Shown one piece after another: positions 43,341 through 43,389 of a DNA stretch of 64,000 nt. The translations under genes and the position numbers were made by a program. The DNA comes from an uncultured Candidatus Saccharibacteria bacterium (GTDB taxonomy: Bacteria; Patescibacteriota; Minisyncoccia; UBA6257). Location: the NCBI GenBank assembly GCA_964479005.1, contig CAYZJA010000001.1, positions 128,001 to 192,000 on the forward strand, given 5' to 3'. The notes under the pieces are model-generated. The model was not told where the DNA came from, made no database searches, and saw only the letters and a program-made list of their open reading frames with translations. Numbering within the stretch: the first letter of the stretch is position 1; each line of letters begins with the position of its first letter.

Positions 43341-43389
43341 GAGAGAGAGAGAGAGAGAGAGAGAGAGAGAGAGAGAGAGAGAGAGAGAG
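43341..43389. repeat. (GA)24 dinucleotide microsatellite
   Basis: A perfect 49-nt GA tract in the intergenic region between two surface-protein genes. Confidence 0.95.

Follow-up and report, generated by a model that had tools for sequence, protein, structure and literature searches.

A perfect GA microsatellite, probably young, in the putative leader of a secreted-protein operon of a Patescibacteria haplotype from Baltic Sea sediment

The window analysed here is a stretch of 64 kb (64,000 nt) of a 551,616 bp contig from an uncultured Candidatus Saccharibacteria bacterium. Two of its genes, encoding proteins of 1207 aa and 578 aa, flank a spacer in which a perfect GA microsatellite is located (Table 1). 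The neighbourhood has the order glmS, efp (minus strand), mgtC, tRNA, 1207-aa gene, spacer, 578-aa gene, 311-aa gene, dockerin-domain gene and further co-oriented ORFs, and the 578-aa gene heads a run of co-oriented secreted-protein genes which includes that of the dockerin-domain protein. The N-termini of both flanking products resemble signal peptides, and it is reasonable to infer that both are secreted or surface proteins; searches of the two proteins against Pfam, NCBIfam and PDB sequences gave no match. The 578-aa protein is conserved across Patescibacteria, with 255 homologues, the names of which include Candidatus Parcubacteria, Patescibacteria group, Minisyncoccia and Paceibacterota.

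The size of the upstream gene varies from relative to relative (862, 1207 and >1900 aa). Between 40103 and 41087 it contains a segment of ~127 nt three times at a spacing of ~430 nt, and these copies indicate tandem repeated domains of ~143 aa. The short SESACP* reading frame at the left border of the spacer starts straight after the TAA stop of this gene and in frame with it. By comparison with the ends of the orthologous genes, either the upstream gene would stop seven codons early, or its body would have been exchanged by recombination, with part of the former 3' end staying behind.

Two further observations concern non-coding DNA of the window. An A-rich motif (…AAAATAAAATTAAAAAATATG) is found directly 5' of start codons at 10675-10765, 11966-12035, 13844-13887, 18319-18385 and 43488-43518, and no Shine-Dalgarno sequence is visible at these starts, a possible sign that translation initiation in this genome relies on an unusual or A/U-rich signal. 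At 51299-51402, in the 105-nt gap between the ORFs 49988-51307 and 51413-52303, an imperfect array of ~10 AACAAAT/AACAGAT heptamers is followed by ~4 inverted ATTGTTA copies, and a long hairpin could form from the two.

Table 1. Features of the spacer and its flanking genes (window coordinates).
Feature	Coordinates	Strand	Remarks
Upstream gene	39621..43244	+	1207 aa, signal-peptide-like N-terminus, no family match, haplotype-specific (singleton 90 % cluster)
SESACP*, in-frame remnant	43245..43265	+	conserved left spacer border; orthologous upstream genes end ...ESSCP* or ...EIACP*
TTGACA, -35-like	43269..43274	+	directly after the upstream stop in L007-L011, L032, L033 and L154; absent in L012
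TATATG, alternative -10	43292..43297	+	17 nt past TTGACA
TGTTATAAT, extended -10	43296..43304	+	homologous to TGGTATAAT (L154), TGATACAAT (L009) and TGATATAAT (L012)
TATCGAG	43337..43343	+	homologous to (T)AGTCGAG of tract-free leaders; GAG seed
GA tract, (GA)24G	43341..43389	+	perfect microsatellite, predicted unpaired in RNA
TAATCGCGG	43390..43398	+	identical to the sequence after GTCGAGCC in tract-free L154
Hairpin 1, GGTTTTT-CAG-AAAAACC	43397..43421	+	7 bp, 2 G-C pairs, -3.2 to -4.3 kcal/mol, then C + T7; weak terminator-like
Hairpin 2, GGTTCAGTCTA / TAGGCTGGACT	43425..43467	+	11 bp (3 G-U), 12-nt loop, -13.2 kcal/mol, then TTTTTATTT; stronger terminator-like
Downstream gene	43507..45243	+	578 aa, acidic, Thr/Ser/Cys-rich, signal-peptide-like N-terminus
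Recombination boundary zone	43510..43598	+	16 differences from L154 (L154 194-282) in 89 nt

The initial annotation had described a perfect (GA)24 repeat of 49 nt, and this was borne out: on the plus strand the tract comprises 24.5 units with 100 % matches and no indels. Its position also agrees with that description (~95 nt past the upstream stop and ~120 nt before the downstream gene), as it begins 96 nt after the stop codon at 43242-43244 and is followed after 117 nt by the downstream ATG. The G+C content of the window is ~32 %, and from its base composition ~2e-24 occurrences of (GA)24G are expected. The tract is the only dinucleotide run of at least 10 nt in the 64 kb and also the longest polypurine run, and no second long GA-type tract was found there. 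With at most one mismatch, the 10-mer GAGAGAGAGA was observed 28 times, compared to 4.4 times in shuffles, and 21 of these matches are inside the tract. The tract is thus a simple sequence repeat with a short unit, free of interruptions and long enough for hypermutability. Perfect repeats of 24 units are prone to slipped-strand mispairing.

To place the tract in a transcript, promoter-like elements of the spacer were compared with those of related loci (handles beginning with L). The TTGACA and TATATG hexamers reported previously upstream of the tract are present at the expected spacing, and an extended -10 element overlaps the second of them. The same type of -10 motif is found in the promoter region of the upstream gene (TGTGGTATAAT near ~39580). 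A promoter-like element directly after the upstream stop was detected in all close relatives (L007-L012, L032, L033, L154) and also in the distant relatives with a spacer that was read (L014-L019, L021-L023), in the form TTGAC(A/T)-17-TAnAnT or TGnTAnAAT. It reads TTGACA-17-TAAACT in L007, L008, L032 and L033 and, as counted by eye, TTGACT-17-TAAAAT in L014 and L017, with similar hexamers in L015, L016, L018, L019 and L021-L023. Since the promoter is conserved at a homologous place, we infer a transcription start at ~43311. The tract, the purines of which are on the sense (non-template) strand of the leader, would then span about +31 to +79, the leader of the 578-aa gene measuring ~196 nt. It is situated ~30 nt downstream of the extended -10 element, outside the -35/-10 spacer and outside any credible ORF. 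A placement in both the 3' UTR of the upstream gene and the 5' UTR of the downstream gene had been suggested before; the 5' leader fits these data, the 3' UTR fits them less well, and the tract would be part of both if transcription of the upstream gene reads through.

The hairpin announced at 43397 was found behind the tract, with the arms GGTTTTTC and GAAAAACC at 43397-43413 and a T7 run. It can be likened to the hairpin behind a tRNA at 39540-39557 (-4.6 kcal/mol, T7). In the stronger hairpin 2, positions 43425-43435 pair with 43448-43458, and T5AT3 lies behind. A scan for consensus terminators, which demands at least three G-C pairs and a loop of at most 8 nt, reported none at the two hairpins. 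Compared to shuffles, the leader RNA showed no extra stability (z +1.36 and +0.33), and the tract is unpaired in the centroid structures.

A promoter-like element upstream and two hairpins with U-runs downstream, all within 160 nt, could also delimit an independent small RNA of ~110-155 nt, extending from the promoter at 43296-43304 to hairpin 1 or 2. Its (GA)24 run, predicted to be fully unpaired and accessible, would serve as a protein platform or as a sponge for pyrimidine-rich RNA. At the gathering threshold, Rfam yielded only three tRNAs in the whole window, and at E<=10 only a chance rRNA fragment in the region 43200-43560, and a known small-RNA or cis-regulatory family was rejected for the leader on this basis. 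Moreover, neither the relatives nor the sister haplotype possess such a unit, the promoter belonged ancestrally to the downstream gene and is not a new one, and no candidate binding protein is known. We therefore regard a small RNA as very improbable.

A further reading is that the tract is translated. An ORF at 43319-43438 encodes 39 aa (MTNSISY(RE)8...), GA repeats are free of stops in every frame, and slippage would shift the frame of such a small protein gene, which was called as a 39-aa gene in L001/L026. It was, however, not called in the identical sequence of L002, and the exact peptide is absent from a collection of 15 billion proteins. No ribosome-binding site precedes the ATG, the region of which aligns with non-coding leader in relatives, and the ORF crosses both arms of hairpin 1. 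The lack of conservation effectively refutes this ORF, which is not credible, and the probability left for a small protein gene is negligible.

The reality and length of the tract were followed in public assemblies. The exact downstream protein was found on eight public contigs, and the exact upstream protein likewise on eight. The tract together with both flanks is contained in three JGI assemblies (3300028837, 3300008516 and 3300008517; L001/L026, L002 and L004) and measures 49 nt in each. Contigs that enter it from the left end inside, L027 after 49 nt and L031 after 48 nt. In the Logan set (k=31), the contigs L028-L030 extend 29 nt into the tract, and L005 begins with 27 nt of it; such breaks are to be expected whenever a tract exceeds k. 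Of four JGI assemblies, two have contig breaks at the tract, which could reflect length heterogeneity in the reads and is explained equally well by low coverage. The contigs L003 (JGI 3300005782) and L006 (Logan SRR3089646) start at nearly the same place, ~40 nt past the tract (their position 1 corresponds to 43430 and 43429 of the window, respectively); this may mark another haplotype junction or a drop of coverage behind the repeat.

Low-complexity repeats break assemblies, and the contigs that end in the tract would be in line with an artefact of assembly or sequencing. Against this, an identical tract of 49 nt is embedded between both flanks in three separate assemblies, a tract-free allele contains homologues of these flanks as contiguous sequence, and ~100 other bacterial GA tracts are widely spread in length (40 to 486 nt) and do not cluster at 49 nt. 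A k-mer collapse that fixes the length at 49 was rejected as well, as there is no peak at 49 nt and 49 is no common assembler k. An artefact has next to no probability.

Length heterogeneity across strains and metagenomes, which had been proposed as a check of phase variation, was not observed in the assemblies. All assemblies that span the tract show 49 nt, though these are consensus sequences from which minority lengths could escape. Look-ups with both flanking proteins, the variant allele P0121 and the clusters returned only 49-nt tracts, contigs ending in the tract or the tract-free haplotype, and a scan of JGI metagenomes with the downstream protein yielded 13 relatives with the source strain not among them. 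Relatives and a co-occurring haplotype are without the tract instead of carrying it at other lengths. Cell turnover in such sediments is very slow, and a constant consensus length across samples is for this reason weak evidence on stability per replication.

The runs SRR3085435, SRR3085585 and SRR3095933 represent Baltic Sea sediments of the Bornholm Basin and Aarhus Bay, taken 0.75-3 m below the sea floor (PMC9301287). The co-occurring haplotype L154 (Logan, SRR3095933) is tract-free. From 43599 to the end of its contig at 45836 (~2.2 kb) it shows no difference from the window, the 89 nt before this are divergent (Table 1), and the region upstream could not be aligned. This pattern of identity indicates that the sediment system is home to two haplotypes, with a boundary of recombination between them near 43599. 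The part coding for the signal peptide, the leader and the upstream gene would accordingly belong to another haplotype than the rest of the operon.

The alignment with L154 points to the origin of the tract. GTCGAG-CC-TAATCGCGG of L154 corresponds to ATCGAG-(AG)23-TAATCGCGG of the window, and in the longer alignment ...TAGTCGAG-CC-TAATCGCGG-GCTAACAG corresponds to ...TTATCGAG-(AG)23-TAATCGCGG-TTTTTCAG. The two sequences that border the tract thus form one contiguous stretch in the tract-free allele, from which we infer that the tract expanded in situ from a GAG seed. In L154 the leader forms a predicted hairpin (-8.1 kcal/mol), with the GAG in its 5' arm, and the expansion would have destroyed this ancestral structure. 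Origin from a mobile element or another foreign insertion was rejected: the window contains neither a second copy of the tract flanks nor a larger repeat family that includes the tract, and the flanks align to the contiguous leader of L154. A direct repeat of 72 % identity (D1, 43288-43326 and 43476-43514) was considered as the trace of a 188-nt tandem duplication and judged to be AT-rich low-complexity similarity, its left copy aligning with the leaders of relatives.

Around 20 orthologous loci, picked from the homologue series of the 578-aa protein, were read. Identities of this protein are 86 % in L007, 81 % in L008, 80 % in L032, 79 % in L033, 78 % in L009-L011, 76 % in L012 and 36-78 % in L013-L025, and the synteny of efp, mgtC, the large protein, the 578-aa and 311-aa proteins and the dockerin gene is kept. 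No GA run of five or more units was present at any of these loci. In the closest relatives (L007-L012, L032, L033; 76-86 %) the spacer is tract-free and 65-157 nt long, compared to 262 nt in the window. A contingency repeat would be kept in relatives with varying copy number, whereas here the ~20 loci as well as L154 are all tract-free.

Unrelated inserts occupy the same leader position in L015, L016 and L023 (~150 nt upstream of the gene start) and in L021, either as a G+C-rich structured element of ~150 nt (…GACAGCGAAGCTGTCATCCTGAGCGAAGCGAAGGATCTC…) or as a G+C-rich hairpin of 40 nt. They show that this position tolerates change, and by this comparison the leader appears to be an insertion hot spot. 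The aligned tract-free alleles (L154, L009, L012) also lack any counterpart of the stretch in which hairpin 1 with its T-run and the greater part of hairpin 2 are located; the haplotype of the window has thus placed a purine run and two terminator-like elements between promoter and gene. Together with the size range and singleton cluster of the upstream gene, the SESACP* remnant and the haplotype boundary, the leader inserts mark a fast-evolving region shuffled by recombination.

That the two hairpins are absent from tract-free alleles would fit selection for insulation, and the tract itself might take part in it. (GA.TC)n polypurine mirror repeats form H-DNA, as plasmid and eukaryotic studies have established, and purines on the non-template strand favour the formation of both triplexes and R-loops. 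The tract is a perfect homopurine-homopyrimidine mirror repeat of 49 bp, well above the ~20 bp of mirror symmetry needed and long enough for a triplex under negative supercoiling, and its purines are on the non-template strand. An H-DNA triplex or an rGA:dTC R-loop would impede RNA polymerase and, whatever the length of the tract, shield the operon from both the upstream gene and the leader promoter. However, a triplex in vivo needs supercoiling and suitable conditions, the tract is not conserved, and the hairpins could insulate by themselves. We know of no structural or functional evidence for H-DNA in any Patescibacteria, and we consider such a function improbable.

The initial annotation had further proposed that changes in tract length could phase-vary the downstream surface protein. 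In such a contingency locus, GA-unit slippage in the transcribed leader would tune or switch the secreted-protein operon, for example if the purine tract, which can form A-U and G-U pairs, competes with the U-rich arm and the U-tail of hairpin 1. The tract is far over any length threshold for slippage and has a conserved promoter on one side and, on the other, the start codon of a gene for a signal-peptide protein. Like the products of contingency loci, the latter resembles a surface or secreted protein, its surface location being suggested by the N-terminus, the acidic, Thr/Ser/Cys-rich composition and the dockerin-domain neighbour. In addition, contigs of several assemblies break at the tract, and other bacterial GA tracts are located at 5' ends of genes.

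A precedent for control of an adhesin by a transcribed 5'-UTR repeat is provided by hmw1A/hmw2A of H. influenzae, where the copy number of (ATCTTTC)n inversely sets adhesin expression (PMC12721329). In the RNA, these repeats pair as left arm with a G-rich right arm into a long hairpin, which RNase III cuts, and the copy number of the repeats varies among and within strains (PMC12721329). As in hmw1A/hmw2A, the GA tract is located between promoter and start codon of a secreted- or surface-protein operon, in what appears to be a transcribed leader, and any effect of it would be graded, as in a rheostat, and not a frameshift. Unlike the hmw heptamer, it is a dinucleotide repeat with no complementary partner, predicted to be unpaired and not to form an arm of a long RNA hairpin; neither conservation nor variation of copy number in assemblies was seen.

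Other short repeats that are rich in purines and precede surface-protein genes in non-coding DNA, and with which the tract can be compared, are (AGAT)n in the 5' UTR of uspA2 of Moraxella catarrhalis and (GAA)n upstream of vlhA of Mycoplasma gallisepticum, before the promoter. There, repeat number sets the level of expression, and the repeats are conserved in gene families and demonstrably variable in length, in contrast to the tract, which lacks conservation and was invariant in the assemblies. The same repeat unit and slippage mechanism are described for intragenic AG/CT switches, namely (AG)12 of M.MmyCI in Mycoplasma mycoides (PMC3498834) and the CT repeats of oipA in Helicobacter pylori (PMC10564699). 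Such repeats are in coding sequence and act by frameshift, whereas the tract is non-coding and its sole overlapping ORF is not credible. By analogy to hmw1A and uspA2, phase variation at the tract is plausible.

To estimate what a change in length might do, folding of the nascent RNA was predicted for different tract lengths. The probability of hairpin 1 was 0.87 at 0 units, 0.54 at 24 and 0.23 at 32, and non-monotonic in between because GA pairs weakly with the U-rich arm and tail. Around the present length it changed by only ~0.05 per unit (0.59, 0.54 and 0.48 at 23, 24 and 25 units). Hairpin 2 had a probability of 0.96-0.97 at any tract length tried, and the accessibility of the start site remained at 0.65-0.69. 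According to this thermodynamic model, a graded effect over large changes in length is conceivable, while ON/OFF switching by slippage of single units is not predicted.

The dependence of hairpin 1 on tract length would be in favour of a contingency locus or rheostat. It is opposed by the small effect of one-unit steps and the insensitivity of hairpin 2 and the start site, by the single length seen in all spanning assemblies, and by the absence of the tract, in place of length variation, from relatives and the co-occurring haplotype. Furthermore, the tract is outside the promoter spacer and any credible ORF, and no second tract exists in the 64 kb, whereas genomes with contingency loci usually have many. 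The proposed phase variation of the downstream protein thus found no backing, and we regard regulation by GA-unit slippage as unlikely.

GA tracts of this kind are not confined to the window. A scan for (GA)20 in one genome per prokaryotic species returned at least 120 stretches, so that long GA tracts can be called rare in bacteria, as the initial annotation had it for AT-rich bacterial genomes, yet not unprecedented. Many of the matches listed are in metagenome-assembled genomes that possibly contain eukaryotic contamination; those listed from isolates or complete genomes are in Aeoliella sp. SH292, Dysgonomonas alginatilytica (twice) and Candidatus Improbicoccus, and those listed from Patescibacteria are L041, L049, L073, L082 and L123. 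Among the matches listed, L043 and L110 are inside the 5' end of an ORF, and L046 and L111 are shortly upstream of large ORFs. In L043 (2986-3032, complete genome of Candidatus Improbicoccus) and L110 (3089-3137, Mycoplasma MAG), an ATG is followed after a few codons by a GA tract (47 and 49 nt, respectively), which looks like a phase-variable layout of the frameshift type, unlike that of the tract in the window. Two tracts in Candidatus Wolfebacteria (L049, 4772-4842, 71 nt) and Candidatus Peribacter (L082, 1436-1479, 44 nt) are in or at the 5' edge of ORFs with translations that resemble reverse transcriptases by eye (…GIPIGNLTSQLFANVYMNEFDQF…). Among the listed matches of at least 20 GA units, Dysgonomonas is represented by at least seven loci from at least five species, including cultured isolates (L047, L111, L098, L122, L125, L142, L148), with the tract of L111 ~260 nt upstream of a 1087-aa ORF. 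Dysgonomonas may use GA microsatellites systematically.

Taken together, these results somewhat favour the view that the tract is a young, haplotype-specific microsatellite which was born in situ in a transcribed leader and which probably is near-neutral, or else a modulator with a graded effect at most. Replication slippage would have expanded the GAG seed in the 5' leader of a secreted-protein operon of one Patescibacteria haplotype in Baltic Sea sediment. Transcription from the promoter at 43296-43304, starting near 43311, would yield an RNA in which the tract is an unstructured run of purines ~30-80 nt into the ~196-nt leader, with two terminator-like hairpins just downstream. Most probably, the tract arose as a near-neutral by-product when slippage acted on a spacer that is hypervariable and prone to recombination, and any effect is likely to be graded, acting on the share of transcripts that pass hairpin 1, and not ON/OFF. 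Some observations speak against near-neutrality. Perfection over 24 units implies either a very recent expansion or ongoing slippage, and the latter is what a contingency locus requires. Repeat switches usually target secreted or surface proteins, and the product of the downstream gene is one of these. Several bacterial tracts of at least 20 GA units are at 5' ends of ORFs or near large ORFs, so that such tracts may often be functional. Finally, the predicted probability of hairpin 1 falls considerably between 0 and 32 units (from 0.87 to 0.23).

As things stand, the locus provides useful context and no new mechanism, and the tract is a curiosity without a demonstrated switching role. The locus nevertheless documents the birth of a long microsatellite from a three-base seed inside a leader, and it documents the spacer and the adjacent gene of a large surface protein as a fast-evolving region shuffled by recombination. 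It is a long shot that the tract functions in its leader as an anti-terminator or rheostat which is tunable by length and serves a surface-protein operon, with tract-bearing and tract-free leaders exchanged by recombination in the subsurface sediment population. Should the tract act as a rheostat, no simple-sequence contingency locus would have been described in Patescibacteria (CPR) before it. Stochastic surface variation by repeat slippage would then reach beyond host-adapted pathogens to ultra-small, probably episymbiotic bacteria of energy-starved sediment, and the locus would offer a handle on which surface proteins matter for the lifestyle of these bacteria.
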